A stretch of 45,100 nucleotides of DNA from an uncultured Pseudomonadota bacterium. Its GTDB lineage: Bacteria; Myxococcota_A; UBA9042; PHBI01; CALCNF01. A program made the translations under genes and the position numbers. The stretch covers positions 1 through 45,100 of the forward strand of contig CALCNF010000177.1 in the NCBI GenBank assembly GCA_937897815.1, in the 5' to 3' direction. Position 1 is the first letter of the stretch, and the number at the start of each line of letters is the position of its first letter. The notes under the pieces were generated by a model, which saw only the letters and a list, made by a program, of their open reading frames with translations, did no database searches and was not told the origin of the DNA. Shown here piece after piece: positions 10,128-42,386 of the stretch.

Positions 10128-10144
10128 AGGGGCGAGGAATCAAG

Positions 10145-11842: not shown

Positions 11843-11891
11843 GGTCTTCGCTTGCTGGGGAGCTGCCGCCTCGTGTGACGGCTCTCGAACG

Positions 11892-16097: not shown

Positions 16098-16202
16098 GAC
16101 CCCTCCTGGAACCACCCGCGACAAGAGTCCGGGTCGAGCCGAGATCTTGATTCCCATGCGGCCAGGACCCAACTCCTGACGACACGGGGTATTGAAGCCG
16201 GG

Positions 16203-16232
16203 ATCGTAGCCGCGCGCAGGATGGACTGTCAA
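16203..16232 (-). promoter_or_regulatory. Candidate sigma-70-type promoter for pilB
   Basis: The minus strand reads TTGACA, an 18-nt spacer, then TACGAT, about 105 nt upstream of the pilB ATG. Sequence match only. Confidence 0.35.
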
Positions 16233-23437: not shown

Positions 23438-24574
23438 ATGAAGATGAGAGAAGCAGTCATCGCCAGCGCCGTGCGCACGCCCGCCGGCCGCGCCATCAAG
23501 GGCAGCTACCGCGACACCCGACCCGAAGATCTTGCGGCCGTAGCGGTCCGCGAAGCCATGGCGCGCGTTCCGGGCCTGAGCGGCTCTGAGATCGACGACG
23601 TGATCCTGGGCTGCGCCATGCCTGAGGGTCAGCAGGGGCTCAACATCGCCCGGACGGTAGGGCTCCTGGCGGGCCTCCCGGTCGAGGTTCCCGGGCAGAC
23701 GGTCAACCGGTTCTGCTCGAGCGGACTCCAAACCATCGCCAGCGCGGCCGAGCGCATCATGGCCGGCTTCGCCGACGCCATCGTCGCGGGCGGCGTTGAG
23801 TCCATGAGCGCCGTTCCCATGGGCGGACACACGCCGCGACCGCACCCACAGACCGTGGCGGAGAACCCCGCGCTTTTCATGCCCATGGGCATCACCGCGG
23901 AGGTCGTGGCGGAGCGCTACGAGGTGAGCCGCGAGGACCAGGACGCCTTCGCTCTTTCGAGCCATCAGAAGGCTACGGACGCCATCTCGAGCGGCCGCTT
24001 CTCCGATGAGCTCGTCGCCTTTGGAGGGCTCGAGGTGGACGAGGGCCCCCGCGCGGACACGACCCTGGAGCGGCTCGCCAAGCTGCGCCCTGTCTTCAAG
24101 ATGGGTGGAACGGTCACCGCAGGCAACAGCTCTCAGATGAGCGACGGAGCCGCCGCGGCCGTGGTGCTCAGCCGAGAGAAGGCCGAGGCCCTGGGCGTGG
24201 AGATCCTGGCCGTGATGCGCGGCTTCGCTGTCGCGGGCGTCAACCCGGACGAGATGGGGATCGGCCCTGTCGCCGCGGTGCCCAAGCTCCTCGAGCAGAC
24301 CGGCGTCGCCATCGAGGACATCGATCTCTTCGAGCTCAACGAGGCCTTCGCCTCTCAATCGCTCTACTGCATGCGAAAGCTCGGCGTCGATCCGGCCCGC
24401 GTGAACGTCAACGGCGGCGCCATCGCCCTGGGACACCCTCTGGGCTGCACCGGGACGAAGCTCACGGCGACGCTCCTGCACGAGATGAAGCGTCGAGACG
24501 CCCGCTACGGGATCGTGACCATGTGCATCGGCGGCGGAATGGGCGCAGCGGGGCTGTTTGAGCGCACCCCGTAG
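23438..24574 (+). CDS. fadA: Acetyl-CoA C-acyltransferase (thiolase)
   Basis: Active-site Cys region [10 protein letters not shown], the C-terminal [17 protein letters not shown], and CIGGGMG. Confidence 0.93.
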
Positions 24575-24580: not shown

Positions 24581-27500
24581 TCAGTAGGCGCCCGTGATGC
24601 GCAGATAGACCCCGCCGTCCGACACGTCATCGAGGGTCGGCTCCAAGGTGCGCGGGATGGCGCTGAAGTCGTAACCCAGGGCCACACGCATGTGCCTCAG
24701 GTACGGGCTCTTGCTCGCCAGGTGCCGCCCGGGCGCGTAGGCGATCTCGGCCAGGTAGCCGTGATGCATGGCGTCGTCTCCGGACAGCATGGCCAGGAGG
24801 CGGTACTCGAGAGAGAGATCGAGGTAGTGGAGCATTCGATAGCCGAGCCTGTGGATCGACAGGAGGTCCTGAGCGCGGCTGGTCAGGGTCTCAGAGTCTG
24901 AGCTCTCCCCGACCGGCGAGAGCCACTTTCGATACCGGTAGACCGCGTGCTCCGTGAGCTCAAGCCCCCTCGGGAGCTCGATGATCGCCCCGACACCGAG
25001 GAGGTCGACGCTCTCCTTCTGGTCATGGGTCGCCGTGCCCTCTAGGCGCTCGACACCATCGGCGAAGGCGTAGCGACGCTGGTAGCGGCTCAGGCGGCCG
25101 GTGATCGTGAGCCAATCCGCCAGGCGCGGACGATGAATCCCCGCCAGAGTCAGCTCAAGACCCTCCCGCAGGACGTCGCGCGTCGCGAGGTTCTGGGTCA
25201 GATCGAAGTTGGCCATGAGCATGATGTTCGTGTCGCGCGAGAGGTTGAACGTGAGGCCGTTCAGGGCCACCGCCTGGACGGTCGTCGCCATGTCTTCGTC
25301 GGTCTCAATGGGCTCTTGATCCAACCGGAGCTCGTAGCGGCTGCCAAACTTCAGCCAGCTGATCGGCAGGATCTCCAGGCCGCCCGCGATCACGTCGCGC
25401 GAGCCGTCGCCCTGCAGTCCGCCGAAGGTCTGACTTCGCTCATAGGAGCCGGCCAGGGCCACTCCGTCAGCCACATGAACCTTCTTGGAGAGACCGAGAA
25501 CCGCGCGGTTGGTTCGACCGTTCACGCCATCATCGAGACGGTACTCGGAGTAGGAGCGCGCGCCGTTGGCCTGGCGCGTCTCTGCGCCGAGGACCGTAGA
25601 GGTGCCCATGGCACCCGAACCCGAACCGAGCTGCTGACCCACGTAGAGGTCGCTCTCCTCATCGAGCTTGGTCCGCACGCTGAACATGGTGGCGTTGTCC
25701 CCATCCCAGCGGACCGCCTCGGTCAGACCAACGCCGACGTCCTTGCTGGCCTGGTACGCGACGCCCACGCGTGTGGTGAGGCGGGGCATGGCTCCCTCAC
25801 CCCAGATCACGTCATCTCCCCCGAGGATCAGCTGCTGACCCAGCGTGGCTTTCAGGTCATCGCGCAGGCGCCAGGTTCCACCCAGGCCCAAGCCCTGGGT
25901 GTCGATGGTCTTCCCGTCAGCGGAGTCGCGGTGCTGACCTATGGCGACCTGGGTCTGAAGATCGAAACGCCCCATGGAGCGCGCATAGGTGCCGGTCGTT
26001 AGACTCCTCGTGTGCTGACGCAGCCCGTCCTCGAAGTCGTTGGGATCGTCGGGCGTGAGCGCCGTCTGATAATCAAACCTCAGGGCGATGGCGTCCTTCT
26101 TGGTCGGGTTCCAGCGGAGCAGGCCACCGGCCTTCTCGGTTCCCTGGTCCTGGATCTGACCCAGCGCGTTGAACTCAGGCTGGCGAACCTGCCACCAGGA
26201 CCGAAGCTTGAGATCGAGGTCATCGCGACCGGCGCTCTTACCGATGTCGCTCACCAGCTCGACGTTGAAGGCCATTCCCTCAGGACGGCGGGGCGTGATC
26301 CCGTTGGGATCGAGGGGCTCATGAGCGAGCTTCTCGTACCTCAGGCCGCCATCGTTGGAGCGATAGCTTGTGCCGTCGTATCCCGACGAGCCCGCGACCT
26401 CAGCCCGGATCATCGTGCCGTCGACCACCTTCGCCTCGATGCCGCCTCCATAGAGTTGGTAGGCCCCATCCCCAGCGTGGGTCTCGGTCACAAAGCCGCC
26501 GGTCACCGTGACCCGATCCGTGATCTTCTGGCGGACCTCGACGGCTCCGGCCAGCGCCCGATCCTTATCCAGCTCTGTGCTCTCATAATCGACGACGATC
26601 CACACCTCATGTCCGCCGTGCACCTGGGCACCAACGGTAGACAAGGGCTGCAACATCACGAGGTTATCGGATGACAAGACGGTCGAAGAGAGGGGCGCGG
26701 AGAGGGTGATACGACCCGATCGGTAGTCGATGCGGTAGTCCTCATCTCGCTTGAGCGCTCGCCGCTCAAGTTCAAGACGTGAGTCCCGCTCACGACGGAC
26801 GATCTGCACACGCTCGCTGCCCTGCAGCACATCCTGCCTGGAGAGATAGTAGAGGCTTCCACCGGTCGCCCGGAGCTCGTCGTGACCCCGCTTCAGACGA
26901 GAGGTGTCCTCGCTGACGAAGCCCTTGAGTTGGGTGTCGTAGCCCGGCGCGAAGGCGTGGTCGAGCTCGAGGAGCGCCCCGTAGAGCGCGCGGTTGTAGC
27001 GAACCAGGCCCAGCCCCTTGAGGTCGGGTCGCACGTTGCCCACGGTCAGCTTCGATCGGTCCGCACGCACCAGGACGTAGAGGGGGCCGCGCGACTGAAT
27101 ATGATCATCTTGTGCCTCATCGGCGAAGACGGCGTAGTCCCTGGACGGGTCGACGAGCTGGGCGTGAAAAGGCTGGAACTCGGGGTTCTTACCCGTGTCG
27201 AGGTGGGCGAGGACGAAGAGCTCTTCGGCGAGCTTCGTGCCTCGAATCCTTCCCTTGAAGGTCACCGCGGCACGACCTCCGACCGTCATGGAGTCTCCGA
27301 CCTTCCAGCTCGTGTTCGCCTTGGCGTCATCAAGGAGGTGGCCACCCAGAAGCTGTCCAGCGCCGTCCACGAGGGCCATGAGGAAGAACGACTCTTCGGT
27401 CACGGTGTAGCTTCGGGTGACGCGCGCCACGAATCCCAGGGCGTCCGTAGAGACGATCTCCAAGGCGCTCTCGCCCACGGGCATCGGGATCCGCTGAGCG

Positions 27501-29239
27501 AACCGACCCGCGCTGTCGAGCACCACAGGGACGCCGTTGGCCGTCACCGTGTTTCGGGGGTGCGAGGTGCCGCTGAGGTAGAGCCACGGAGACTGCAGAG
27601 GCTCAGAGGAGGGCGGCAAGAGCAGCTCGATCTGTCCGGCCGTGTCACGCTTGTTCTCCTCACCGCCCGGGATCATGGGATCGCCGAGCGCCCGTCGCAG
27701 GGCGTCTCCGCCAAAAGCCCTCAAGGGGTCCTCAGCGGGGAGGGTCGTCGTCCCCGTGAGCTCCTTGAGGTCTACGGCGCGCTCCCAGGAGACGCCAGAG
27801 GCGTTGACCATGCGAAGGGAGACAATGCCGCTACCAGGCCTCGGAGTCGTGCCCAGGAAGTGTCCTTCGCTGTGGACCTTGATCTTGTTGCCCTGCAGCC
27901 AAATCCCCGCGGGCTCGATAGGCGTCGAGAGCGTCACATCGGGAGCGCGCTCTGTCGGCGTGAGCAGGGTGATCTCCAAGCGACGATTGAAGGTCCTGTT
28001 TCGCTCGCTGATGTTGGGCAGCAGCGGCCGCACGCCTCCGTATCCCAGAGTGTCGATCCGCTCTCGCTCGATCTGCAGCTGGGTCACCAGCGCCTCGGCG
28101 GTCAAGAAGGCCCCTCGCCGCGAGCGCGAGAGCGCCATGTCGGGCTCCATGCTGTCGTCGGTGTGAACCTCGATGAGCAGCCGAGACTCAGGGTTCTCCT
28201 CCACGAGCGTCTTCAACTCTCCCAGGCTCTGACCGAGGAGCCGCGTCGGGTTCATCTCCTCGTCAAACAGGATCCCTCGTATGACCAGGCGCTCCACGAC
28301 GCCTCCGCCCTGCCCATAATCCACCCCAAAGGTGATCGGGCGAGCGCGCGAAACCGCCCCGTGACCATCGGTGATCGTCAGGATCGCCCGGTACATCTGC
28401 CCCTGATCGAGGACGCTGAAGACCTGGCTCGGATCGGTGCCATCCCACGACAGGCTGTCGGGAGGCTCGCCGCTCCCGAAGAACGAGCGGACCGTGCGCT
28501 CGATCCGCTCACCGACGTGAGCGATATCGATCCGCCACGTCGCGCCCTTCGCCGGTTCGCCACCGGTGGAGATGATCTCGGGCTTGAAGACAATGGGCTT
28601 CTTCAGCGGTCCGGGATGCCAGGAGAGGTTGTGGCCCCCCTTGACCTTGGTGCGGCCTGGAAAGTCGACCTCAAGGCCCGCGATGTTCACGGGCAGCGAA
28701 TGACTATCGACCGTGACCTGGGCGGGGGTCGTCTGCCCCGCAAGCAGCACTGTGGAGGCGAGCGCCTGGGTCGAGGCGATGGCCGGGGTATCGACGCCCT
28801 GAGTCGGCGCGTCGATCACATCGGGTGTGACCCGCTCGATCGAGCATGAGACGCCAAAGTCGACCCGAAAGATCATCCCGGGCGTCGTCCGCAGGTGACG
28901 CGTCAGACCTCCCGCGGGGATCTTCGCTCCCGCGACCGTGGTCGCATCAATCTTGATCAGCCGCTGTCCTGCCGTCAGACGACGGAGATGGAAGCGACCG
29001 TCACGATCGGTCCGCGAGAAATCGCCGGTGTCTGCGCGAACGTCGACACCGCCGAGACCCAGCTCGCCGTCCTGGCGCTTTCCATCGCCGTTGGTGTCAC
29101 AGAACAGAGAGCCGAGGACCAGGCTGGTACCAAACTCGGGCTCATCGTAGAGCTCGGTCGCTCCAGCGGCCATGGCGACGCCCGAGAAGGCGACCAGGAT
29201 CGGCACAAGGAGAGCTAGAATAAGAGGACGATTGTTCAT
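24581..29239 (-). CDS. Giant (1552 aa) secreted outer-membrane protein with internal OmpA-like peptidoglycan-binding domain and long beta-rich C-terminal region
   Basis: Signal peptide MNNRPLILALLVPILVAFSGVAMA. SdrD/Cna-B-like CDTNGDGKRQDGELGLGGVDV. FlgD-Ig-like SLSWDGTDPSQ...YRAILTITDGHG. OmpA-like LLIEVHTDDS...ALSRSRRGAFLTAEAL...NRTFNRRLEITLL. The C-terminus ends LRITGAY, an aromatic terminal residue as in BAM-dependent barrels. Confidence 0.8.
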   Translation of the reverse strand: MNNRPLILALLVPILVAFSGVAMAAGATELYDEPEFGTSLVLGSLFCDTNGDGKRQDGELGLGGVDVRADTGDFSRTDRDGRFHLRRLTAGQRLIKIDATTVAGAKIPAGGLTRHLRTTPGMIFRVDFGVSCSIERVTPDVIDAPTQGVDTPAIASTQALASTVLLAGQTTPAQVTVDSHSLPVNIAGLEVDFPGRTKVKGGHNLSWHPGPLKKPIVFKPEIISTGGEPAKGATWRIDIAHVGERIERTVRSFFGSGEPPDSLSWDGTDPSQVFSVLDQGQMYRAILTITDGHGAVSRARPITFGVDYGQGGGVVERLVIRGILFDEEMNPTRLLGQSLGELKTLVEENPESRLLIEVHTDDSMEPDMALSRSRRGAFLTAEALVTQLQIERERIDTLGYGGVRPLLPNISERNRTFNRRLEITLLTPTERAPDVTLSTPIEPAGIWLQGNKIKVHSEGHFLGTTPRPGSGIVSLRMVNASGVSWERAVDLKELTGTTTLPAEDPLRAFGGDALRRALGDPMIPGGEENKRDTAGQIELLLPPSSEPLQSPWLYLSGTSHPRNTVTANGVPVVLDSAGRFAQRIPMPVGESALEIVSTDALGFVARVTRSYTVTEESFFLMALVDGAGQLLGGHLLDDAKANTSWKVGDSMTVGGRAAVTFKGRIRGTKLAEELFVLAHLDTGKNPEFQPFHAQLVDPSRDYAVFADEAQDDHIQSRGPLYVLVRADRSKLTVGNVRPDLKGLGLVRYNRALYGALLELDHAFAPGYDTQLKGFVSEDTSRLKRGHDELRATGGSLYYLSRQDVLQGSERVQIVRRERDSRLELERRALKRDEDYRIDYRSGRITLSAPLSSTVLSSDNLVMLQPLSTVGAQVHGGHEVWIVVDYESTELDKDRALAGAVEVRQKITDRVTVTGGFVTETHAGDGAYQLYGGGIEAKVVDGTMIRAEVAGSSGYDGTSYRSNDGGLRYEKLAHEPLDPNGITPRRPEGMAFNVELVSDIGKSAGRDDLDLKLRSWWQVRQPEFNALGQIQDQGTEKAGGLLRWNPTKKDAIALRFDYQTALTPDDPNDFEDGLRQHTRSLTTGTYARSMGRFDLQTQVAIGQHRDSADGKTIDTQGLGLGGTWRLRDDLKATLGQQLILGGDDVIWGEGAMPRLTTRVGVAYQASKDVGVGLTEAVRWDGDNATMFSVRTKLDEESDLYVGQQLGSGSGAMGTSTVLGAETRQANGARSYSEYRLDDGVNGRTNRAVLGLSKKVHVADGVALAGSYERSQTFGGLQGDGSRDVIAGGLEILPISWLKFGSRYELRLDQEPIETDEDMATTVQAVALNGLTFNLSRDTNIMLMANFDLTQNLATRDVLREGLELTLAGIHRPRLADWLTITGRLSRYQRRYAFADGVERLEGTATHDQKESVDLLGVGAIIELPRGLELTEHAVYRYRKWLSPVGESSDSETLTSRAQDLLSIHRLGYRMLHYLDLSLEYRLLAMLSGDDAMHHGYLAEIAYAPGRHLASKSPYLRHMRVALGYDFSAIPRTLEPTLDDVSDGGVYLRITGAY

Positions 29240-29354
29240 GGGCTCCAGGCAGGCACCAGCGGGAGAGAGGCCATGCTAACCCGGGTCTTGGAGACCGTCC
29301 ATTGACCGAGCTACGCTCGGCGGGGATCGATGAGACCCACCCGGCTGAGAGGGC

Positions 29355-31163
29355 TCAGTTCGGGTTGTACAGGGTAATCGCGTGCTCCGAGCTCGTCTGA
29401 TCGATCGCCGCGCTTCCGCCGTATCCGCCGAGCAACACCGCCGTGCCGCGATCGCTGAGCACCGCGTGGTGTCCAAATCGGGGGAAGGGCATCGTCGGGA
29501 CGATCGGGCAGGTCTCTCCGGGAGCGCATAGGGTCGAAGAGTAGGCCAGATCGATCGTCGGCTTCGCGACCACCTGGGGCTCGCTTGAGGTGCAGCCACC
29601 GTCCACCTCGATCCCACCCTGCTGAGCGCAGAGGTCGGGATCGACCGCGGCGATCTGCCCGTTGGCATACTGACAGCAGACCCATTGGGTCTCGATCTTG
29701 TAGTACTCGTGGATGATCTCGATGGAGTCGAGCACCTCATCGCCGACGCCCACGCCGCCGCTCGTGAACACGGATCCATCATCGAGGACCACCGTCGAGT
29801 GCGCTCCGCGCGGGACGCGCAGCGGGATCGGGTCCGAGCGGAAGGTGTTCGTGGCGAGGTCATAGACATCCACGGCGCTCGTCGGATTCTTATGGGCGAC
29901 GTCCGTGTAGCCACCGATCAGGTACAGCCAGTTGTACTTGGTCTGCCCCGACGCTGCGTCCACGCTGACGACGTGCGCCGCCGTGTGCCGGGTCCGCCCG
30001 AGCCCATTGGTCATGGCGTAGGGATCCAGGTTCACGATCTGGCCATCATTGAGGTTGATGATGAAGCTCGACGCGTGGGTGTTTGTGTCCGATTCGCCGC
30101 CTGAGACCATGACGACGGGGAGGGCTAGACCGGGGATGTCCATCAGGGTGGCCGTGTGGAATCGGCGTGGCCCGTCGGGCAGGTTCCCCCATCCGATGGT
30201 CCCCTGGTAGGGCTCCCAGAGCTCGTAGGTGCCTGTCCCGTCCACATCACCACCCACGATGAGGATCGTGAAGGTATCCTCATCGACCAGGGTCGCCGTG
30301 TGACCATATCGGGGCTTGGAGATGTTGTTGGCCAGGGCGCCGGTCTCGCGAGCGGGATCGGGCTCATAGACCTCGACCGTCTCCAGAGGCTGGCAGCAAG
30401 AGCGCACCGGTCCGTTCAGATCGTTCACGATCGCCGTGCCATATCCGCCTGTGAAGATGACCTGACCCGTGCGCAGGGCCGTCGCCGTGTGCCAGGCCCG
30501 CTCCAGATCGAGGTTCTTATCGACCAGGGGGATCTGGCGGGAGTTGCTCACCTCGTCGATCACCTCGACGCTCGCCAGATAGGTGGGGTCGGCGAGACTC
30601 GTGGACTCCATCCCGGAGATCGAGTTCAGAGGAATCGTCCGACCTCCAGCGACGACGATCTCGCCATTCGGCGTGGTGGTCGTCGTGTGCCCGATTCGTC
30701 CTACGTCCAACACCTGAGCCGTTCCGGTGACCGAGCTCGTGAGGGAGAAGAAGCTGTTGATCCGGGCCAAGAGAACCGAGAGCGTCTGGGTAGGCGAGCC
30801 GTCGACCACGGACGCACGCACGCTCGCGCCGCGGCTCACAAGATAGCCCGGCTGACCATCTGGTCCTGCCGCCCAGCCCTCGACGACGACCCGACGCTTG
30901 GAGTCCCCGCTCGTGAAGGGCACGGCGTCGACCTCCGCGGAGCTCCCTGGTGTGTAGGGGACCACCTTCGTGGGCGTCACGTTCAGGTCATCGCCCTCCA
31001 CCGAGATCGCCACAAAGGCCACTCCAAGGAAGGGATCAGGGGCGTCCGCGGGCCCATAGACCTGCGTCGCCAGCCCGAGCGACATGGCATCATCATCGCA
31101 GCCAGCCAGGAGCCCTAGGGCGCCCAGGACCAGCACACACAGCGATCGTCTCAGTCCGTTCAT
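29355..31163 (-). CDS. Kelch-repeat beta-propeller lipoprotein
   Basis: ATG at 31163 gives MNGLRRSLCVLVLGALGLLAGC with lipobox LLAGC. Seven units of the type (R/F)xH(T/S)(A/T)...GG are visible, e.g. AWHTATALRTGQVIFTGGYG, YGHTATLVDEDTFTILIVGG, FGHHAVLSDRGTAVLLGGYGG. The track start at 31238 overlaps the upstream gene. Confidence 0.8.
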   Translation of the reverse strand: MNGLRRSLCVLVLGALGLLAGCDDDAMSLGLATQVYGPADAPDPFLGVAFVAISVEGDDLNVTPTKVVPYTPGSSAEVDAVPFTSGDSKRRVVVEGWAAGPDGQPGYLVSRGASVRASVVDGSPTQTLSVLLARINSFFSLTSSVTGTAQVLDVGRIGHTTTTTPNGEIVVAGGRTIPLNSISGMESTSLADPTYLASVEVIDEVSNSRQIPLVDKNLDLERAWHTATALRTGQVIFTGGYGTAIVNDLNGPVRSCCQPLETVEVYEPDPARETGALANNISKPRYGHTATLVDEDTFTILIVGGDVDGTGTYELWEPYQGTIGWGNLPDGPRRFHTATLMDIPGLALPVVMVSGGESDTNTHASSFIINLNDGQIVNLDPYAMTNGLGRTRHTAAHVVSVDAASGQTKYNWLYLIGGYTDVAHKNPTSAVDVYDLATNTFRSDPIPLRVPRGAHSTVVLDDGSVFTSGGVGVGDEVLDSIEIIHEYYKIETQWVCCQYANGQIAAVDPDLCAQQGGIEVDGGCTSSEPQVVAKPTIDLAYSSTLCAPGETCPIVPTMPFPRFGHHAVLSDRGTAVLLGGYGGSAAIDQTSSEHAITLYNPN

Positions 31164-31173
31164 CGCTGTCTCC

Positions 31174-33294
31174 CTACCACGACGCCGAGGCTCGGAAGCC
31201 CTCAGCCGGCTCATCACCCGTGAGCAGGAGCGTGCCACCGATCACGGCCACCACCGCGCCCGTGCCAGCCCAGACCCACCACTTCTTGTACCAGACGCCA
31301 GCGGCGTCATAAGGCTCAACCACGTTATCCGGATCATTCATCCATTCCAGCGCGCCCGATCCGCTAGCCGGAGGGGGCGTCGCCTCAGCGACGCGCGACG
31401 CCTCACGCCGCTCGCGCTCCGCGCGGCGCTCTTCTTCACGGCGATCGGCAGCGCGACGGTCTCGTGCTCGGTCGGCGCGAGCCTGCTCAGCCTGCCGGCG
31501 AGCATCGGCGAGACGCGCGGCCTCCTCACGAGCCCGACGCTCCAGCTCTGCGAGGCGCGCGACCTCATCATCCTCCCCGGCTCGGGCGGCGCGACGGCGC
31601 TCCTCCTTCAGACGGCGGGCCTCGTTCTGACGATAACGCTCACGAGCCTCGCGGTCCTCCTTGGCTCGCCGAGCCTCCTCCGCCAGACGACGGTCCCGCT
31701 CGCGGTTCTCAGCGGCCGTGCGAGTTGAACGCGCTTCGCGTTCCAGGCGCTCGGCCTCCAGGCGCGCGTTGCGCTTGCGAATGCGTTCCTGCTTGGCAGC
31801 CTCAGCGGCAGCCAGCTTGGCGTTGCGCTTCCGAAGGCGCTCCTGCTTGGCCGCCTCAGCGACAGCCAGCTTGGCGTTGCGCTTCCGAATCCGCTCTTGC
31901 TTGGCAGCCTCAGCGGCGGCCTCTTTGGCCTGCCTTCGTGCCTCGCGTTCCGCGCGCTGGGCCTCGAGAATCTTCCGCTTCTCTCGCTCCTTGGCGGCCC
32001 GCTCCGCCTCGCGAGCCTCGCGGATGATCTGCAGCTCCAGGCGGCGCTTCTCCTCTTCCTTGGCTTTCTGCTCAGCGGCCCTGCGTCGCGCCTCGATGTT
32101 CACATAGATGTCGCTCGGCCCGGTGAGCTTCCGGCTGACGGGGAAGGCTGCGAGGCCCGAGAGGACCTGCCCCTCCAGATTCAGAAGGTTCACCTGCATG
32201 TCGCTGAGCTCCGGATCGAGGCTGATCCAGTCAAGCTCGGCGATCCGGTTGCGCTCACGCTCCCAGATGAAGGTAGCCATCTCGTAGCGGTTCTTGTTCT
32301 TCCGGGCGTAGCCCATGACGATGTTTTCAATATTGTAGAAGCGAGAGACCTGGGCGGCGATTCGCAAGAAGCGCGTCCCAAACTTGCCCTGCTGAAGAAG
32401 CGTCACGAGGGGCTCGGGCGAGCGAAACTTCGGCGCCGCGTCCTTCTGCACCTTCAGGGGCTTGAGCTTCCCCTTCACCACGTGACCCTTCCCGCTCATG
32501 GAGATGGACTTGGCGTAGGACTGGTGTCCGTCGAGGACCATACGGACCACGTGAACGCCGCGAACCATGTTCCGCGCTTGGAACGGAGTCTCGCCCGCTC
32601 GGATACCGTCAATGAACACCTCGGCACCCGGAGGCGTGCTCTCGATTCGCACGCTGGTCAGGGCCGACGAGGTCTGCAGACGCTGGAGCTTCGAGAGGAT
32701 CTCAAGGGCCTCCTTGGGCACCTTTCGCTTGTCGAGGATCAAGTCCGGGCGGAACGAGAGGACGCGCTTGAGAGCCCGCTCTCCCTCAAAGGCCTGCCCA
32801 GCATAGAAGTAGGCGAGCGCGACCCCCAGGGCGCCATCAATGTACTTGTTGAAGTCCACCAACACATCGAAGCGTGACTCATACAGCTTCATGGACTTCT
32901 TAAAGGTGGCGGCCGCCTTGTAGAACTTGCCCTTGCCCATCAGCTCCTTGGCGTCCCAGAGCAGGTTGTCGGCCTTCTTCAAGCGGGCATCTTCGACCGG
33001 GATCTCGACCTTCTCTTCGACCACTGGGACCTCGAGGGTCTCCAGGGTGTAGAACTCAGCCTGGCCGCTGATGTCGAGCAGCTGCTTGAGGTAACGGTCC
33101 ACTCGGCCGGGTACCACCTCGCTGACACCCTCCTGGCTCTGTGTGGGGAGGATCAAGATGCGCGGCTTGGCGTTCGCTTCTTCACCGCTGCCCTGAGCCC
33201 GTACGTCATGGGCGAGCATCAAGCCGCAGACGAGGGCGAGCACGAACGGGGTCGTGCGCGGGGAGGAGACGAGTTCGTTCATCATATTGGGCAT
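31174..33294 (-). CDS. PEGA-domain envelope protein with TolA-like charged helical region and C-terminal TM anchor
   Basis: Probable start is ATG 33294 (or 33285/33282), giving MPNMMNELVSSPRTTPFVLALVCGLMLAHDVRAQG, which is signal-peptide-like. PEGA motif VRIESTPPGAEVFIDGIRAGETPFQARNMVRGVHVVRM. Then roughly 230 aa rich in R/E/A/K with three 18-aa repeats, and a C-terminal hydrophobic helix WWVWAGTGAVVAVIGGTLLL. Confidence 0.75.
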   Translation of the reverse strand: MPNMMNELVSSPRTTPFVLALVCGLMLAHDVRAQGSGEEANAKPRILILPTQSQEGVSEVVPGRVDRYLKQLLDISGQAEFYTLETLEVPVVEEKVEIPVEDARLKKADNLLWDAKELMGKGKFYKAAATFKKSMKLYESRFDVLVDFNKYIDGALGVALAYFYAGQAFEGERALKRVLSFRPDLILDKRKVPKEALEILSKLQRLQTSSALTSVRIESTPPGAEVFIDGIRAGETPFQARNMVRGVHVVRMVLDGHQSYAKSISMSGKGHVVKGKLKPLKVQKDAAPKFRSPEPLVTLLQQGKFGTRFLRIAAQVSRFYNIENIVMGYARKNKNRYEMATFIWERERNRIAELDWISLDPELSDMQVNLLNLEGQVLSGLAAFPVSRKLTGPSDIYVNIEARRRAAEQKAKEEEKRRLELQIIREAREAERAAKEREKRKILEAQRAEREARRQAKEAAAEAAKQERIRKRNAKLAVAEAAKQERLRKRNAKLAAAEAAKQERIRKRNARLEAERLEREARSTRTAAENRERDRRLAEEARRAKEDREARERYRQNEARRLKEERRRAARAGEDDEVARLAELERRAREEAARLADARRQAEQARADRARDRRAADRREEERRAERERREASRVAEATPPPASGSGALEWMNDPDNVVEPYDAAGVWYKKWWVWAGTGAVVAVIGGTLLLTGDEPAEGFRASASW
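31766..31927 (-). repeat. In-frame 54-bp tandem repeat x3 inside the PEGA protein gene
   Basis: Units are at 31766-31819, 31820-31873 and 31874-31927. Units 1 and 2 differ at 5 of 54 positions by my count; unit 3 is more diverged at its high-coordinate end. They encode AAEAAKQER(I/L)RKRNA(K/R)L(A/E) three times. Confidence 0.85.
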
Positions 33295-33458
33295 TGCGTG
33301 GTTCTGGGCTAGGATTCGGGAAGAGGGGGTGCGCCGCTGCGCGTCGTGCTTTGGCTCATCACCCGTGGATCGATTGGGCATCTCGTGCCCGAGTCGCTTG
33401 GTTTGGACCGCCCCAGAGGGGCGCACCTTAATGGTGTTGCCCTGGATGAGTCAACGCA

Positions 33459-34547
33459 TTGAACGAGCCCAACCCTGGATCGGATGAGCCAGCGACCGCG
33501 CCCGAGATTCGGCGCAGCCTGATCGCGCTCTTCGTCGGGACCGGGCTCATCGGGCTCATTACGCTTTTTGTCCCTGCGCTCCAGGGCCTCCAGCAGGGGC
33601 TCCTCGCCCTGCTCCTGTTCCTGGTGCCGTCGTGGGCGCTAAAAGGGAGCGGGAAGACGATCGACGACATGGGTGTGGACATGGGCCCCTGGCCGAAGAC
33701 CCTGCTCGTGAGCTTGATTTGTGGGCTGCTCATCTACCCCCTGTTCGCCGGGGTGTTCCACGGCTTTCACACCGAGGTCACCGGGGCCTCGGCGCGTTGG
33801 AGCCTGGAGCGCCTGGAGCGATTTGACGAGTCGCTCCTCGATGCTCCTCAGGCCCCCTGCGACACAAAACGATCGCAGGCCCAGGCCTGGATCGCGGGAC
33901 AAGGTCTTTGGATCCTGGCTCCCACCACGGCCGGCCTGGAGATCGACCTGGGCTCAGAGTCCGCGAAGATACGGCGCGCTCGATGCCGTGACGGCGCGCC
34001 CCACGCCGGCCCCGCTCGATCACGGAGCGGCGGAACCGTCAGCGTCCCTCCTGGTGGCGGGCTCTGGTACAGCCTCAAGGACCGCGGATCCTTCGAGCTC
34101 GATCTCCGATCCGAGGGCCGCGCGCTCAGCGGTCCACAGCTCACCATCGGGGCGCGGTCGGAAGAAGGTCCAGAGGGCGGGAAGCTCGCTGGATCGAAAG
34201 ACCTCTCCTGGATCGTCTTGTACCTGATCGTCCATCTGGGGATCGTGGCCCTGCCCGAAGAGTGGTTCTTCCGGGGCTATCTCCAGACGCGTCTCGACGC
34301 ACGTTGGGGGACCCCGTGGTCCTTCCTTGGAGCGAAGCTGGGCTGGGGTTTCGTAGCGAGCGCCTTCTGGTTCGCCCTGCTGCACCCCATTCTTCTGCCG
34401 GGCGCGCACCGGTTGCTCGTCTTCTTCCCGGCGCTGCTCTTCGGCTACTTGAGGGCGCGCACCGGCAACATCGGGGCTGCCGTGATCATCCACGCGACCT
34501 CGAATCTTCTGCTGGCCATCCTGGTCGGGATGTACGACTGGCCGTGA
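33459..34547 (+). CDS. CPBP-family intramembrane glutamic endopeptidase (CAAX protease/Abi family)
   Basis: Conserved EExxxR motif (LPEEWFFRGYLQTRL), FxxxH (FWFALLH) and a terminal HxxxN (IHATSNLL). Multiple TM segments. TTG start at 33459, with no upstream ATG in frame, so the start is uncertain. Confidence 0.8.
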   Translation: MNEPNPGSDEPATAPEIRRSLIALFVGTGLIGLITLFVPALQGLQQGLLALLLFLVPSWALKGSGKTIDDMGVDMGPWPKTLLVSLICGLLIYPLFAGVFHGFHTEVTGASARWSLERLERFDESLLDAPQAPCDTKRSQAQAWIAGQGLWILAPTTAGLEIDLGSESAKIRRARCRDGAPHAGPARSRSGGTVSVPPGGGLWYSLKDRGSFELDLRSEGRALSGPQLTIGARSEEGPEGGKLAGSKDLSWIVLYLIVHLGIVALPEEWFFRGYLQTRLDARWGTPWSFLGAKLGWGFVASAFWFALLHPILLPGAHRLLVFFPALLFGYLRARTGNIGAAVIIHATSNLLLAILVGMYDWP

Positions 34548-36008: not shown

Positions 36009-36743
36009 GTGTCGGACACGAATAGCAGCCCCAACGCTTCGATCCTCATTCCTGTCTACAATGAGGAAGTCCTCGTAACGACCGCGGTCGAGCAGCTGAT
36101 CGATGAGCTGGCGAGTCGACTCCCTGATCTCACCTACGAGATCCTCGTGACCGAGAACGGCTCCTCGGATCGTACCCTGGAGTTGGCCTACGAGCTGGAG
36201 AAGCGCTTTGAGGCCGTGAGAGCCATCCACAGCCCTGAGCCCAACTACGGCCTTGCGCTGCGCCGAGCCATGCTCGAGGCGCGAGGCACCTATGTCCTGT
36301 GCGATGAGATCGACATCTGTGACGTCGACTTCCACGCGCGGGCCCTTGAGATCCTGATGGCCGGAGAGGCCGATCTCGTCATCGGCTCCAAGGCTCACGC
36401 CGACGCCCAGGACAAGCGCCCGGTCCTTCGCCGCACGGCGACCCTCGTCCTCAACGGCATGCTCCGGGTCCTCCTCGGGTTCACCGGGACGGACACCCAC
36501 GGACTGAAGGCCTTCAATCGAGAGCGCCTCCTTCCTGTCGTCAGCATGTGCATCGTCGACAAGGACATCTTCGCCTCCGAGTTCGTGATCCGCTCAGAGC
36601 GGCAGAAATACACCCTCGTCGAGATCCCCGTGACCATCGAGGAGAAGCGACCGCCCTCCATCAACCTCTTCAAGCGCGTTCCGCACGTGCTCAAGAGCCT
36701 CGCCCGGCTGACGTGGGCGATTCGAGTGGCGAAGCGGTCATGA
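36009..36743 (+). CDS. Family 2 glycosyltransferase (polyprenol-phosphate sugar transferase-like)
   Basis: ASILIPVYNEE N-terminal GT2 signature, TENGSSDRT, and CDEIDICD (DxD-like). GTG start at 36009. No C-terminal TM helices. Confidence 0.88.
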   Translation: MSDTNSSPNASILIPVYNEEVLVTTAVEQLIDELASRLPDLTYEILVTENGSSDRTLELAYELEKRFEAVRAIHSPEPNYGLALRRAMLEARGTYVLCDEIDICDVDFHARALEILMAGEADLVIGSKAHADAQDKRPVLRRTATLVLNGMLRVLLGFTGTDTHGLKAFNRERLLPVVSMCIVDKDIFASEFVIRSERQKYTLVEIPVTIEEKRPPSINLFKRVPHVLKSLARLTWAIRVAKRS

Positions 36744-37642
36744 GCTCGCGCGCCGCGGCCGTGAACGTCGACGTAGACAGCCTCTACCTGTACTACCGTC
36801 TGCACGGCTTCGAGGAAGACGACGCGAACAACGCGGTCTGGACCAGAGGCGTGCGACGCTTCGCTGAGCTCTTTGACGAGCTCGACGTCCGCGGGACCTT
36901 CTTCGTCGTCGCGGCGGATCTGGAGCGCTGGCCCGAGGCTCGCGAGGTCGCCACAGAGCTCGTGGAGGCCGGCCATGAGCTCGGCAGTCACACCTACTCG
37001 CATCCCTACGACTTCACACGCCGCTCGGACGCTGAGATCGAGGATGAGCTCAAGCGCTCTCACGACGTGATCAGCGAGCTGGTCGGCCGACCCATTCAGG
37101 GGTTTCGAGCCCCTGGATATACGATCACGGCCCCGATCCTCGAGCGAATGGAGGGACTCGGGTACACCTACGACAGCTCCCTGTTTCCCTGCCCGCCCTA
37201 CTACCTGGCGAAGGCCTCAGTCATGGGCATGATGCGCCTGCGGGGACGGCGCTCGGAGGCCATCCTGGATCGCCCGTCGATCATGTGGCAGCGGCGCACG
37301 CCGCACTGGCGCTCGGGAATCCGTGAGCTGCCCATCACCGTGCTCCCTGGCCTGCGACCACCCTTCATCGGCACGAGCCTCTTGATGATGGGCCGTTCGG
37401 GCTATCGAGCGATCCGTCCCTGGGTGCGATCGACCTCCTTCGTGAACCTGGAGTTCCACGGGATCGATCTGTGCGACCTCGAGATCGACGGCATCGACCC
37501 CGTCCTGCTCAAGCAGCCCGATCTCCGGGTCCCCCTGGCGGACAAGCTCGCCCTGTTCCGTGAGGTGATCACCGACCTGCGGGACGGCTGGAACCTGGAC
37601 ACTCTGGAGAACCTGGCCCCGACCCTGGTCCCCGCCTCCTGA
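36740..37642 (+). CDS. Polysaccharide deacetylase family (CE4/NodB-homology; ArnD-like layout)
   Basis: VNVDVDSL..., RGTFFVVAADLE, and GHELGSHTYSHP (NodB His motif). ATG at 36740 overlaps the GT2 stop (ATGA). The track ORF from 36548 is an out-of-context extension. Confidence 0.85.
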   Translation: MSSRAAAVNVDVDSLYLYYRLHGFEEDDANNAVWTRGVRRFAELFDELDVRGTFFVVAADLERWPEAREVATELVEAGHELGSHTYSHPYDFTRRSDAEIEDELKRSHDVISELVGRPIQGFRAPGYTITAPILERMEGLGYTYDSSLFPCPPYYLAKASVMGMMRLRGRRSEAILDRPSIMWQRRTPHWRSGIRELPITVLPGLRPPFIGTSLLMMGRSGYRAIRPWVRSTSFVNLEFHGIDLCDLEIDGIDPVLLKQPDLRVPLADKLALFREVITDLRDGWNLDTLENLAPTLVPAS

Positions 37643-37680
37643 GCGGCTCCGACCCGAGCGCGCTCCGCGCGGCCATCCTG

Positions 37681-38226
37681 GTGGGAGGAACGAGCGAGCG
37701 AATGGGCGCTCCCAAGGCGACCCTGTGCCCGGGAGGTGAAGAGCCTCTCCTCGACCGGATCCATCGGGCCATCAGGCAGGCCGACCTGCCCGTCACCCTC
37801 GTGGGTGAAGGTCCGATCACCGAAGGGGCCTCGCGGCTCAAGCGCATCCCGGATCGACCCGGGATTCCAGGTCCCCTCGGGGGGATCCTGGCCGCCGTAA
37901 ACCATGATCCATCCGCGTCCTGGCTCGTCTTCGCCTGCGATCTGGCGCTCCTGAAGCCGGCCGCGATCCGCTGGTTGATCGACCAGCGGCGCGAGGACCA
38001 CATCGCCGTCGTGCCTCGGCTCTCCGAGCGCCGCGTCGAGCCCCTCTTCGCCGTCTATGAGCCCGGCGCTCGGGAACTCCTCGAGGCCATCGCCCTCGAC
38101 GGCCCTCCGGCCCCCAGGCGCCTCGCGGGCTTGCCCGGGGTCGTCACACCGGAGCCCCCGGCCGAGATCCGAGCGTGCTGGACAAACGTGAACACCCCCG
38201 AGGACCTTGAGGGCCTCGAACTGTAG
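37681..38226 (+). CDS. mobA: Molybdenum cofactor guanylyltransferase MobA-like nucleotidyltransferase
   Basis: GGTSERMGAPKATL, GPLGGILAAV, ACDLALL, EPLFAVY and NVNTPEDL all match the MobA family. The first canonical start (GTG 37681) truncates the conserved ILxGG strand. An in-frame CTG at 37639 overlapping the upstream stop would restore it (see findings). Confidence 0.85.
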   Translation: MGGTSERMGAPKATLCPGGEEPLLDRIHRAIRQADLPVTLVGEGPITEGASRLKRIPDRPGIPGPLGGILAAVNHDPSASWLVFACDLALLKPAAIRWLIDQRREDHIAVVPRLSERRVEPLFAVYEPGARELLEAIALDGPPAPRRLAGLPGVVTPEPPAEIRACWTNVNTPEDLEGLEL

Positions 38227-38298
38227 GCAACCGCCCCCCTGCGAGGCTATCCTGCTGCGCAACCGAACGGCACCTGAGCACCTGGAGAGATCCCCAAC

Positions 38299-39867
38299 GT
38301 GAGCCGCTCCTCCAAACCACGAGCCCTGTCCCGCGCTGAGCAGCGACGGGAGCGCGAGGCCAAGGGCCGCCTCCGAGGCGCCGCCTGGCGAAAGGCCATG
38401 CTCGCTGAGGAGCGAGGCACGATCTTCGGTGAGGCCCCCACCCGCGTCGGCCTCTGCTACCCGAACCCGTACCGGGTCGCCATGAGCTCTCTCGGCTACC
38501 AGGTGATCTACCGGATGTTCAACGAGCACCCGACCCTGTGCGCCGAGCGGATCGTCCTCGACGACGAGGCCGCCAACGGCGGTCGTCTTCGAGAGCCGCC
38601 GCGTTCCCTGGAGCAGGGCCGCCTCCTCTCTGACTTTGACCTCCTCGCCTTCTCCGTCTCCTTCGATCTCGACATCATGGGGATCTTCGCCATGTTGGAG
38701 GCGGCCGGTATCCCGGCGCTCAGGTCCGAGCGAGGACCCAGCGATCCTCCGATTCTCCTCGGAGGTCCGGTCACCGCGTCGAACACCCTGCCGTTCGGAC
38801 CGTTCATCGATCTCGCCGTGATCGGGGATGGAGAGCGGGCCGTCGAGGCCCTGATGGAGCTCCTGGCCCAGGACCTGGACCGCGCTTCGCTCCTGGCCGC
38901 CGCCGCAACGATCGACGGGGTGTGGGTTCCCGAGCTTCACGGGGACGCCGTGCCCGCCACCCAGAAGGTGAGCGCGGGCGTCCTGCCCGCCTACGGCCAG
39001 ATCGTCACGCCGAACGCCGAGCTGTCGAACATGTTCCTGGTCGAGGCGAGCCGAGGCTGCCCACGTTTCTGTAAATTCTGCCTCGTTCGGGCGCCCGAGA
39101 GCCCCATGCGTGAATCCGAGCTCGAGCGGGTCATGGAGCGCATCCCGGATCACGCGACCCGCGTCGGCTTCGTCGGCGCCGCGGTGAGCGAGTGGACGGG
39201 GATCCGAGACGCGCTGCGCGCCGTGGTCGAGAGCGGACGTGGAGTCGGCGTCTCGAGCCTCCGAGCCGATCGCCTCGATGATGAGTTCGTCGGTCTCCTC
39301 GCCCGGGGAGGCTACCGCACCATGACCGTCGCCGCCGACGCGCCGAGCCAACGACTGCGCAACAAGATGGCCAAGGCGATACGCACCCGACACCTGGTCG
39401 AGGCGGCCCACCTGGCCCGGGCGGCCGGGATGAACCGGCTGAAGCTCTACGTGATCATCGGGATCCCCGGAGAGACCGATGAGGACATCGACGAGCTCAT
39501 CGAGCTGTCGAAGGAGCTGGCCGCCATCCTCCCCCTCGCCCTAGGACTCTCGCCGCTGGTTCCCAAGCTTCACACCCCTCTGGGAGACGCCCCCTTCGCC
39601 GGTATCGCGACGATTCAGCGCACGCTGACGCGCCTACGGAAGGCTCTCGGAGGCGTCGCTGACGTTCGATCGGCCTCAGGCCGCTGGGCCTGGATCGAGT
39701 ACCGTATGAGCCAGGGCGGTCAGGACGCGGGTCTGGCGGCGCGCGAAGCCTGGGAGCACGGAGGCCGCTTCACCCACTTCAAGTCAGCGTTCCAGAGCGT
39801 GGAGGAGAGAGGGGCCCTTCGACTCGCCAACGAGCACGCGCTCTTTCGGGCCGCCGGGATGCGCTAG
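38299..39867 (+). CDS. B12-binding-domain-like radical SAM protein (TIGR03960-like, uncharacterised function)
   Basis: Radical SAM cluster motif EASRGCPRFCKFC. The N-terminal CYPNPYRVAMSSLGYQVIY is typical of this uncharacterised radical SAM family as I recall it. GTG start at 38299 after GGAGAGA. Confidence 0.85.
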   Translation: MSRSSKPRALSRAEQRREREAKGRLRGAAWRKAMLAEERGTIFGEAPTRVGLCYPNPYRVAMSSLGYQVIYRMFNEHPTLCAERIVLDDEAANGGRLREPPRSLEQGRLLSDFDLLAFSVSFDLDIMGIFAMLEAAGIPALRSERGPSDPPILLGGPVTASNTLPFGPFIDLAVIGDGERAVEALMELLAQDLDRASLLAAAATIDGVWVPELHGDAVPATQKVSAGVLPAYGQIVTPNAELSNMFLVEASRGCPRFCKFCLVRAPESPMRESELERVMERIPDHATRVGFVGAAVSEWTGIRDALRAVVESGRGVGVSSLRADRLDDEFVGLLARGGYRTMTVAADAPSQRLRNKMAKAIRTRHLVEAAHLARAAGMNRLKLYVIIGIPGETDEDIDELIELSKELAAILPLALGLSPLVPKLHTPLGDAPFAGIATIQRTLTRLRKALGGVADVRSASGRWAWIEYRMSQGGQDAGLAAREAWEHGGRFTHFKSAFQSVEERGALRLANEHALFRAAGMR

Positions 39868-40991
39868 GGAGCGAGCTCGAGGAGGAGAGAGTCGAGGATC
39901 AGGACGTGGTCGGGATGAATCCGAAGTCGTGACCCCATGGCCTCCAGACATCCTCGCGCCTCAAGGTCCTCGAAGCGGGCGCCGGTCGCGGCTTGAAGCC
40001 AGCCACGCTCCACCCCTCGCTCCAGATCGCGAAGCCCCGTCATGACGCGCTCCCACGCCCAGACCTCATCCGAGATCCGCTCGCTCTCGGCCTCGGGATC
40101 ACCCGCCATGCACGCCTCCATGTATCGACTGGGGCGGCGGTGATTGACCCAGCGACGCTGATCGAGGAGGCCGTGAGCCGCCGCGCCCACCCCGAGATAG
40201 GGATGTCCGTGCCAATAGGCGCGATTATGAACCGCCTCGCGACCGGGCCGAGCGTAGCTGGAGACCTCGTAATGGGACCAACCTGAATCGCCGAGGAGAA
40301 GGCGCGCTTCCTCGAACAGCTCCGCGCTCCGATCGTCGTCGACGGGCGGATAGGCTCCGTCATCGATCAGGCGCTCCAGACGCGTCCGTGGCTCGACGGT
40401 CAGGCCGTAGATGGAGAGGTGATCAACGCCCAACTCCAGGGCGATCCCCAGCTCCTCGCGCCACGAGGAGAGGTCCTGGCCTGGCGTGGCGAAGATCAGG
40501 TCGATGCTCACGTCCGAGACCCCCGAGTCCCGCGCGATGACGACCGCGTCGGCCGCCCCTCGGGCGTCGTGACCTCGATCAAGGTGCTGCAGTCGCTCAT
40601 CGAGGAGCGACTGCACCCCGAGCGAGAGCCGGTTCACCCCGACCTCCACGTAGGCCGACAGTCGCGCTCGATCCACGTCCTCGGGGTTCAGCTCCAGGGT
40701 GATCTCGGCGCCGTCGATGAGCCCGTGCTGGGTTCGCGCGGTCTCGATGACCGTTCCAACATGGTCGGGCTCCCAGAGGCTCGGCGTCCCGCCTCCGAAG
40801 TAGAGGGTCTGGGCGTCCTGTGGGAGCGATCCGGACCGGAGCTCAAGCTCGTGGAGGATCGCCCGCGTGTACTCCTCCTGGGGGATACGCTCGGGCGTGA
40901 CGAGGGCGAAGTCGCAGTAGTGACAACGATGACGGCAATAGGGGAAGTGGATGTAGATGCCGCCGCTCTGCTCGGGCTTTATCCGCTCCAC
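39864..40991 (-). CDS. hemW: Radical SAM heme chaperone HemW / oxygen-independent coproporphyrinogen oxidase-like
   Basis: IYIHFPYCRHRCHYCDF (CxxxCxxC), YFGGGTPS, and the HemN-family layout at about 375 aa. GTG start at 40991 overlaps the upstream stop (TAGTG). Confidence 0.88.
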   Translation of the reverse strand: MERIKPEQSGGIYIHFPYCRHRCHYCDFALVTPERIPQEEYTRAILHELELRSGSLPQDAQTLYFGGGTPSLWEPDHVGTVIETARTQHGLIDGAEITLELNPEDVDRARLSAYVEVGVNRLSLGVQSLLDERLQHLDRGHDARGAADAVVIARDSGVSDVSIDLIFATPGQDLSSWREELGIALELGVDHLSIYGLTVEPRTRLERLIDDGAYPPVDDDRSAELFEEARLLLGDSGWSHYEVSSYARPGREAVHNRAYWHGHPYLGVGAAAHGLLDQRRWVNHRRPSRYMEACMAGDPEAESERISDEVWAWERVMTGLRDLERGVERGWLQAATGARFEDLEARGCLEAMGSRLRIHPDHVLILDSLLLELAP

Positions 40992-42310: not shown

Positions 42311-42386
42311 CGCGTCGAGCCTACGTCTCCAGATCCGCGCTGGCAAAGAATGGGCGCGACCGCGCGCGCGCGTCGTCCCCTCCCGT

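Follow-up and report, generated by a model that had tools for sequence, protein, structure and literature searches.

The stretch of DNA considered here, positions 1 to 45,100 of contig CALCNF010000177.1 from an uncultured bacterium and referred to below as the window (45.1 kb, approximately 65% GC), carries a conserved cluster of four genes for predicted envelope proteins, three of which were described in a first-pass annotation made from the sequence alone. These three lie on the minus strand and encode, in their order of transcription, a PEGA-domain stalk protein (31174..33294; 706 aa from the start selected in that annotation), a Kelch lipoprotein (29355..31163; 602 aa, counted from an internal ATG) and a giant outer-membrane protein (OMP; 24581..29239; 1552 aa). 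The fourth conserved member, mrtP (33459..34547, plus strand), is divergent from the trio and encodes a myxosortase-type protease. The three minus-strand open reading frames (ORFs) and the short gaps between them, 10 nt from PEGA to Kelch and 115 nt from Kelch to OMP, are present as first reported. Their third-position GC of 0.79-0.81 is typical of real genes in this window, and the giant OMP and the PEGA protein have 100% database matches of exactly 1552 aa (P0001) and 706 aa (P0023), respectively. On one side the trio is met by a convergent thiolase gene (23438..24574, plus strand) and on the other it is backed by the divergent mrtP, which makes it a self-contained candidate transcription unit. 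GC content runs through the region without a compositional break, and in the absence of a GC anomaly a reading of the locus as a defence or mobile element was dropped. The first-pass annotation had called the trio a non-enzymatic module; the three proteins indeed include no enzyme, but the conserved cluster does, in the form of the intramembrane protease MrtP encoded immediately beyond the three genes then considered.

Related loci were gathered by way of the OMP, the PEGA protein and MrtP, together with a species-level genome scan with the MrtP alignment, and all were checked by tblastn and with hidden Markov models built from the orthologues. In a set of 5.8 billion proteins there are 22 clusters of homologues for the giant OMP and 14 for the PEGA protein, the named sources are all uncultured Myxococcota or 'Deltaproteobacteria' metagenome-assembled genomes (MAGs), and the carriers of the cluster form an uncultured group of marine Myxococcota; a pattern scan brought up none of the cultured Bradymonadales (Bradymonas, Persicimonas, Lujinxingia). 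The genes for MrtP and the PEGA protein are divergently adjacent in 20 non-redundant loci, the Kelch gene comes next after PEGA wherever enough DNA is available (17/17), and the giant OMP gene directly follows Kelch in 14 of 17 informative loci. In one of the remaining loci (L030) the OMP gene is displaced by two inserted ABC-transporter genes, and in two (L012, L017) it is absent from the DNA that was fetched. The inserted pair, an ABC ATPase and an ABC-2 permease (L030, 4031..5763), occupies the opposite strand between the Kelch and OMP genes, and thus the OMP can be transcribed separately. The arrangement extends to distant relatives such as L019, in which the proteins are identical to those of the window at 31% (MrtP), 24% (PEGA), 27% (Kelch) and 30% (OMP) of positions. 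It also stands in at least five differing flank contexts, with both sides reshuffled and the cluster intact: thrB with thiolase-fadJ on the other side, thrB with a beta-helix gene and an ExbBD-TonB set, a B12-radical-SAM gene with DegT and sugar genes, an amino-acid permease gene with CCP_MauG, and PhdYeFM/PIN with ABC genes. The first-pass annotation had named a lack of co-conservation in relatives as grounds for refutation, and the 20 loci examined come out in its favour.

The product of mrtP is a CPBP/Rce1-like glutamic intramembrane protease by its Pfam Rce1-like matches, and residues 16-359 of its 362 match the MrtP equivalog model NF040674 at 259.5 bits, above the cutoff of 250. Orthologues linked to the trio score between 243 and 334 bits with this model, one of them (L026, 242.9) falling slightly under the cutoff. 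MrtP rests on an in silico definition, as the enzyme of Bradymonadales type that processes MYXO-CTERM signals (Haft 2023, 10.1101/2023.06.07.544157). For its counterpart in Myxococcus xanthus, the myxosortase MrtX, experiments have demonstrated that it cleaves MYXO-CTERM, that this cleavage depends on the MYXO-CTERM Cys, and that surface display requires the enzyme (Guo et al. 2025, PMC11980579). The route in that organism also requires type II secretion, no lipidating enzyme has been identified for it, and mutants in the myxosortase show defects of the envelope (PMC11980579). The housekeeping myxosortase is stated not to be in an operon with any client (10.1101/2023.06.07.544157, PMC11980579), and neither of these myxosortase papers mentions PEGA, Kelch or OmpA-type neighbours. 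A regular-expression search of the window and related loci recovered no MYXO-CTERM-like tails, a result that carries no weight, since the genes for clients are scattered across genomes. Comparison of the MrtP central domain between trio-linked and unlinked proteins gave no discriminating feature, a Cys pair being inconsistently linked to the trio.

The organization of the genes carries the signs of an operon. In several loci the stop codon of PEGA overlaps or directly adjoins the start codon of Kelch, an arrangement suggestive of translational coupling of this pair, in contrast to the gap of 60-170 nt that precedes the OMP gene. Between mrtP and the PEGA gene lies a promoter-like element directed toward the latter (33426..33454, minus strand), consisting of TTGACT (33449-33454), a 17-nt spacer and TTAAGG (33426-33431); it lies 5 nt ahead of the start codon of mrtP. 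The element was detected by k-mer counting across loci: the motif CGTTGACT, with a GTTGAC core, followed after 16-18 nt by a hexamer resembling TTAAC, TTTATT or TAAGG, is present, and points the same way, in 9 of the 18 intergenic regions between MrtP and PEGA, compared with a mean of 0.65 loci and a maximum of 4 in shuffled controls. Besides the window it is found in the intergenic regions of L001, L003, L006-L010 and L017, at 5-50 nt from the mrtP start, so that the divergent promoters of mrtP and PEGA must overlap. A consensus promoter and terminator scan returned nothing significant, the TTGACT element being passed over because of its weak -10 hexamer. As judged from this conserved pattern, the TTGACT-N17 element is the putative promoter of the PEGA operon.

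The PEGA protein begins with a signal-peptide-like segment (residues 1-34; MPNMMNELVSSPRTTPFVLALVCGLMLAHDVRA/QG, ending LMLAHDVRA/QG) and continues with a folded head (approximately residues 45-397), a spacer (398-667) and a C-terminal anchor (668-706). Within the head a single PEGA domain is recognised (32470..32658, minus strand; residues 213-275, PF08308, E 2.3e-10). An AlphaFold model of residues 36-410, with 13 orthologues in the alignment, has a predicted local distance difference test score (pLDDT) of 82.7 and places five TPR-like helices between a small alpha/beta unit and the PEGA beta-sandwich, with a second alpha/beta domain after the sandwich. Foldseek searches with this model returned only generic TPRs, YbgF/CpoB (2xev) among them, and transthyretin-like sandwiches, the PEGA beta-sandwich matching domain II of carboxypeptidase D, and a PDB sequence search with the protein gave zero matches. 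The signal-peptide-like start, the TPR-like helices, the one PEGA domain and the single C-terminal hydrophobic helix of the first description are all borne out.

The spacer (31294..32103, minus strand; 270 aa) is extended and rich in R, E, A and K. It is the least conserved part of the protein, and in every orthologue it is low-complexity and extended, with a length of 45-318 aa. In the clade of the window it takes the form of a charged R/E/A/K helix, in most other orthologues that of (K/E)P, KVEP, EKPPVVV or PxP repeats, and in one that of Gly/Thr repeats. A charged helix is the type of spacer found in TolA, and Glu-Pro/Lys-Pro repeats are the type found in TonB. The likeness to TolA noted earlier concerns the spacer; the topology of the protein is opposite to that of TolA. 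In the window the spacer contains a 54-nt tandem repeat (31766..31921; 2.9 copies, Tandem Repeats Finder score 256, 89% matches) that encodes 18-aa units, AEAAKQERIRKRNAKLA, which suggests that the spacer grows through tandem duplication.

At its C-terminus the protein carries an anchor (31177..31293, minus strand) composed of WYKKWWVW, a Gly/Ala/Val-rich hydrophobic helix, an acidic/Gly tail and the terminal residues GFRASASW. Orthologues keep this segment to the final residue, as WYxxWW(V/F)W, helix, polar stretch and terminal GFxTTVTW, and the motif is retained at overall identities as low as 24%. In 515 kb of related loci it is confined to PEGA orthologues, and the idea that it is a shared sorting tag was dropped on that account. 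Compared with a MYXO-CTERM, the C-terminus has the transmembrane-like helix and, in the window protein and almost all orthologues, lacks both the invariant Cys and the Arg cluster; because these two are absent, it is not a MYXO-CTERM. None of the NCBIfam sorting-signal models matched it. In one related locus (L027, 8196..9778) the PEGA orthologue is broken into ORFs of 467 aa and 68 aa, the second containing the anchor, by a frameshift or an assembly error.

The Kelch protein has a lipobox, LLAG-C22 (Cys codon 31098-31100), with Asp at +2, and the lipobox is kept in most orthologues. Kelch_4, Kelch_6, Kelch_1, Kelch_2, Kelch_3 and related Pfam families pass their cutoffs across residues 155-493, and a PDB sequence search matched one generic Kelch protein (9tsn). 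A lipoprotein with a Kelch-like propeller, as initially proposed, agrees well with these matches.

The giant OMP is built from a signal peptide (...AFSGVAMA/AG), an SdrD_B-like immunoglobulin-like (Ig) domain whose match is weak, an OmpA-like domain, a Glucodextran_B-like Ig domain and a C-terminal beta-barrel of approximately 930 aa. The OmpA-like domain (27947..28273, minus strand; approximately residues 323-431) is predicted to bind peptidoglycan. It gives partial matches to the NCBIfam models of YiaD, TraB, LptF and Pal and matches to PDB chains, with E-values from 1e-9 to 1e-7, among them the OmpA-like chains 5wtp, 5jir and 5u1h at E 1e-7. The ligand-contact motifs HTD, LSxxR and NRRxE are kept, with IEVHTDDS, LSRSRRGA and FNRRLEI aligning with these three chains, and on the basis of these residues the domain is predicted to hold peptidoglycan. 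The Pfam model PF00691 is not reported for the window protein, reaches 26.4 bits against a cutoff of 27.2 in the L019 orthologue, and scores 73 bits in a distant family member. The match to the TraB model covers the OmpA-like part only, and involvement of TraAB outer-membrane exchange was dropped. The protein ends ...RITGAY, with a terminal Tyr, and the consensus of its orthologues is ...R(I/L/M)TG(A/T)(Y/F).

The barrel module itself (24584..27382, minus strand; approximately residues 620-1552) was examined with an AlphaFold model and a profile search. The model contains at least 35 long antiparallel strands, with pLDDT mostly 75-90 and a pTM of 0.54, and a Foldseek search with it returned large outer-membrane barrels only, namely MtrB, SprA, Deinococcus SlpA, TonB-dependent transporters and LptD, at TM-scores of just 0.1-0.28, which rule out assignment to a family. 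As modelled, it is a generic giant barrel of the outer-membrane type that lies outside the MtrB, SprA, SlpA, LptD and TonB-dependent families. No Pfam model covers it, and the family is nameless in both Pfam and NCBIfam. A profile of the trimmed alignment of residues 620-1552, searched against 1.84 billion cluster representatives, nevertheless recovers 2041 of them at E <= 1e-3 and 561 at E <= 1e-30. Among the matches listed the barrel alignment always reaches the C-terminal end, in proteins of 358-5300 aa, the shortest of which are fragment-like. Examples include proteins with up to 16 DUF11 repeats followed by SdrD_B, OmpA, Glucodextran_B-like Ig and barrel, and P0169, P0170 and many others are of 4000-5300 aa, with DUF11 repeats, OmpA and the same C-terminal barrel of approximately 930 aa. 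The order SdrD_B/OmpA/Glucodextran_B-like Ig/barrel is common to the window protein, P0169, P0181 and the trio orthologues, and source names for the barrel relatives say only 'DUF11 domain-containing protein [Myxococcales bacterium]' or 'OmpA-like'.

Relative to this unnamed and uncharacterised family, with which it shares the core domain order at highly significant profile E-values, the window protein is short (1552 aa) and without the DUF11 array, whereas relatives reach 5300 aa; it also belongs to the subgroup that is tied to PEGA, Kelch and MrtP. The trio-linked orthologues, of 1500-2140 aa with a variable N-terminus (CarboxypepD_reg or DUF11 additions), form the top-scoring subgroup of giant-OMP homologues. 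The description of this protein in the first-pass annotation, as a signal-peptide protein with an internal OmpA-like domain and a long beta-rich C-terminus ending in an aromatic residue, stands, with the qualification that it is a member of a large existing family. For the trio as a whole, every feature claimed at first is there: the export signals with the lipobox, the three domain types (PEGA, Kelch and OmpA-like) and the beta-rich C-terminus.

We tentatively favour, at somewhat less than an even chance, an interpretation of the four genes as an envelope cluster in which mrtP stands back-to-back with an operon for a passive, motor-less complex of inner membrane, peptidoglycan and outer membrane that is linked to MrtP. 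From gene content, domain content, conservation and synteny we infer where the proteins would lie, which of them would be in contact, and how they would relate to sorting. The PEGA protein would be exported by means of its signal peptide and kept in the inner membrane by the conserved C-terminal helix, with the low-complexity spacer carrying the TPR/PEGA head across the periplasm toward the outer membrane. There the head would contact the Kelch lipoprotein, and the giant outer-membrane barrel would be pinned to peptidoglycan by its N-terminal OmpA-like domain. The trio operon and mrtP would share a compact divergent control region, and the complex might, as one example of a role, organise or stabilise the site in the envelope at which sorted proteins exit the inner membrane. 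The complex is probably tied to the MYXO-CTERM surface-protein sorting pathway, because its control region is shared with mrtP and its anchor helix would sit in the membrane that also holds MrtP. This tie is purely genetic, and could correspond to co-regulation, to docking of the anchor on MrtP, to cleavage of the anchor, or to the outward movement of proteins that MrtP has processed. An envelope-spanning tether was already, beside a surface-structure scaffold, the working hypothesis of the first-pass annotation, and it is consistent with the OmpA-like motifs, the outer-membrane type of barrel and the alternation of TolA- and TonB-like spacers; what it did not anticipate is that the trio is paired with MrtP and so does not stand by itself.

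Several observations weigh against this interpretation. The hydrophobic anchor helix is without the usual flanking positive-inside charges, which makes its topology uncertain, and the variation in spacer length from 45 to 318 aa means that the spacer is no fixed periplasmic ruler. The OMP may be a looser partner of the cluster, since it is missing beside PEGA-Kelch in two species (L012, L017) and its barrel family is widespread without PEGA or Kelch neighbours. MrtP, for its part, does not need the trio, because four loci (L020-22, L028) encode proteins that pass the MrtP cutoff, at 28-32% identity to the window MrtP in a multiple alignment, with no trio nearby. All of the examples come from uncultured MAGs of one lineage, and part of the synteny may be shared descent. 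In L028 (539..10954) the protease gene closes a run of four genes in one direction, the upstream three encoding unrelated large proteins of 1470 aa (carrying a TIG domain), 665 aa and 916 aa (matching DUF6242_C faintly), and this set may represent a different group of MrtP partners.

The looseness of the OMP lends itself to an account in which the cluster is really two units, the PEGA and Kelch proteins being an inner-membrane/periplasmic accessory pair of MrtP and the giant OMP an independent tether between outer membrane and peptidoglycan, or a porin, that is merely encoded downstream. Such a division would explain why the pair is beside MrtP in every informative locus (17/17) when the OMP is not, and is in keeping with the wider gap ahead of the OMP gene, with a barrel family most of whose 2041 representatives are much larger DUF11 proteins, and with a relative of the giant OMP at 27% identity (P0012) that has no PEGA, Kelch or MrtP neighbours. 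We consider it rather unlikely, given that the OMP directly follows Kelch in 14/17 loci, even at 30% identity and where the flanks have been rearranged, and that the OMPs linked to the trio are the very subgroup that scores highest. A more general form of scepticism would attribute the whole arrangement to phylogenetic inertia, the genes being neighbours only because they come from one lineage and serving unrelated housekeeping roles in the envelope. All loci are indeed from uncultured Myxococcota-type MAGs, and there are the relatives of MrtP without the trio, but the flanks have been reshuffled at least five times around an intact cluster whose proteins have diverged to 24-40% identity, PEGA and Kelch appear to be coupled in several loci, and the promoter-like motif is conserved, all of which leave inertia as a slim prospect.

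A different relation between PEGA protein and protease is conceivable, in which the former is a Cys-less dedicated client of MrtP and no inner-membrane anchor, its tail being cleaved and the protein freed to the periplasm or outer membrane, where it would work with the Kelch protein and the barrel. Sorting enzymes with a single client are typically encoded beside it, as with MrtJ and JDVT-CTERM (Haft 2023), the adjacency to MrtP is invariant in the clade, and the highly conserved tripartite C-terminus, with its W-rich motif, hydrophobic helix and short tail, has the appearance of a sorting signal. The same C-terminus, however, lacks the invariant Cys and the Arg cluster that define MYXO-CTERM, and MrtX needs the Cys (PMC11980579); moreover, its conservation to the last residue (GFxTTVTW) suggests that the tail is retained and functional, and the motif is on no other protein in the 515 kb of related loci. 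Such a client appears improbable. A further proposal, which overlaps with the passive structural complex that we favour, is that the cluster is an export conduit, with the anchor docked on MrtP, the stalk, head and Kelch protein passing along lipidated, cleaved MYXO-CTERM proteins, and the barrel of at least 35 predicted strands, fixed to the peptidoglycan, serving as their exit through the outer membrane; we give this more ambitious scheme little weight.

Parallels with better-known envelope systems are instructive in their limits. At the level of domains the cluster has the same parts as Tol-Pal: an inner-membrane anchor with a long charged spacer, a periplasmic beta-propeller, an OmpA-like domain attached to the outer membrane, and TPRs, those of the PEGA-head model matching the YbgF TPR domain (2xev) among other generic TPRs. 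The TolQ/TolR motor, however, is not in the cluster, and Pfam scanning of neighbouring ORFs (at about 8.7-24.6 kb and 33.5-45.1 kb) found no MotA_ExbB or ExbD; the ExbBD-TonB set mentioned above is downstream in L001 only and is not conserved. The PEGA protein is reversed relative to TolA, with an N-terminal signal peptide and a C-terminal anchor, and has no TonB_C or TolA Pfam match, the propeller is that of a lipoprotein matching Kelch families only and not TolB, and the OmpA-like domain resides within a barrel protein of 1552 aa and not in a small lipoprotein, the Pal model TIGR02802 scoring 20 bits against a cutoff of 125. For want of TolQR, and in view of the reversed topology, the Kelch propeller in place of TolB and a Pal score far under cutoff, a Tol-Pal variant was dropped.

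The giant OMP recalls Deinococcus SlpA and OmpM-type tethers in its order of an N-terminal wall-binding domain followed by a very large C-terminal outer-membrane barrel, and SlpA chains gave the highest query-normalised TM-scores in the barrel fold search (0.21-0.24), values too low for a claim of homology. SlpA combines an SLH domain with a trimeric coiled coil, whereas the window protein has OmpA-like and Ig-like domains and no SLH match; no sequence similarity between them was found, and the likeness is in architecture only. With SprA (Sov), the translocon of the type 9 secretion system, there is the resemblance of single-chain giant barrels, with 36 strands in SprA and at least 35 predicted here, each in a locus or pathway with a protease that sorts by C-terminal signals. 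SprA is among the top fold matches with TM-scores of only 0.10-0.20, shares no sequence similarity and is without an OmpA-like domain. Neither Pfam nor NCBIfam gave an SprA match, and PorK/L/M/N, PorV and PorU were not found among the scanned neighbours; membership in a type 9 secretion system was dropped on the strength of these results. The MYXO-CTERM sorting system (MrtX, MrtC, MrtP) is represented at the locus by the cutoff-passing MrtP as divergent neighbour, and the PEGA protein likewise ends in motif, helix and tail, but without the Cys and Arg signatures; in Myxococcus xanthus that system is known to continue downstream through type II secretion. None of the trio proteins is covered over its whole length by a Pfam or NCBIfam family, PDB sequence searches of the trio found only OmpA-like domains and the generic Kelch protein, and the literature yielded no paper describing the combination of PEGA, Kelch and outer-membrane protein, in agreement with the first-pass annotation, which did not recognise the trio as any described system.

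The novelty of the cluster is moderate: each domain type is known, and it is the arrangement and the pairing with a myxosortase that are undescribed, the likeliest job, tethering or accessory to sorting, being of a known kind. The path that myxosortase-cleaved proteins take between inner membrane and cell surface is understood only in part, and the trio provides concrete candidate partners for it. The cluster also defines a type of motor-less assembly of inner membrane, wall and outer membrane that draws on Tol-Pal-like domain types, and its barrel family, with more than 2000 members in proteins of up to 5300 aa, may include some of the largest single-chain outer-membrane barrels. Were the export conduit to prove correct, it would constitute a new route for surface proteins, one that resembles type 9 secretion in its sortase-plus-SprA logic and does without the type II secretion on which Myxococcus relies. 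Were the complex a structural tether only, it would be a lineage-specific solution in the Myxococcota for holding the outer membrane, useful and unsurprising.

Elsewhere in the window, approximately 8 kb from the trio, lies a type IV pilus set (8703..16232, minus strand) comprising a PilR-like sigma-54 response regulator, a PilS-like histidine kinase, PilC (T2SSF), a PilT-like ATPase and a PilB-like ATPase with MshEN, and such a set is likewise beside the cluster in L003. On the opposite side of the cluster an ORF of 669 aa without a Pfam match (37402..39411, minus strand) overlaps the radical-SAM gene of the other strand and is probably a spurious product of high GC, and a protein of 451 aa (40991..42346, minus strand) has one PKD domain and no NCBIfam match. 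A GT2 glycosyltransferase, a polysaccharide deacetylase and a B12-type radical SAM protein recur a few kb beyond mrtP (36009..37642 and 38299..39867 in the window; also L001, L002 and L030), the deacetylase having its best match, far under cutoff, to the XrtA-system deacetylase model. In L006 and L007 the cluster is flanked by sugar-modifying genes (DegT, dTDP-sugar isomerase, flippase).

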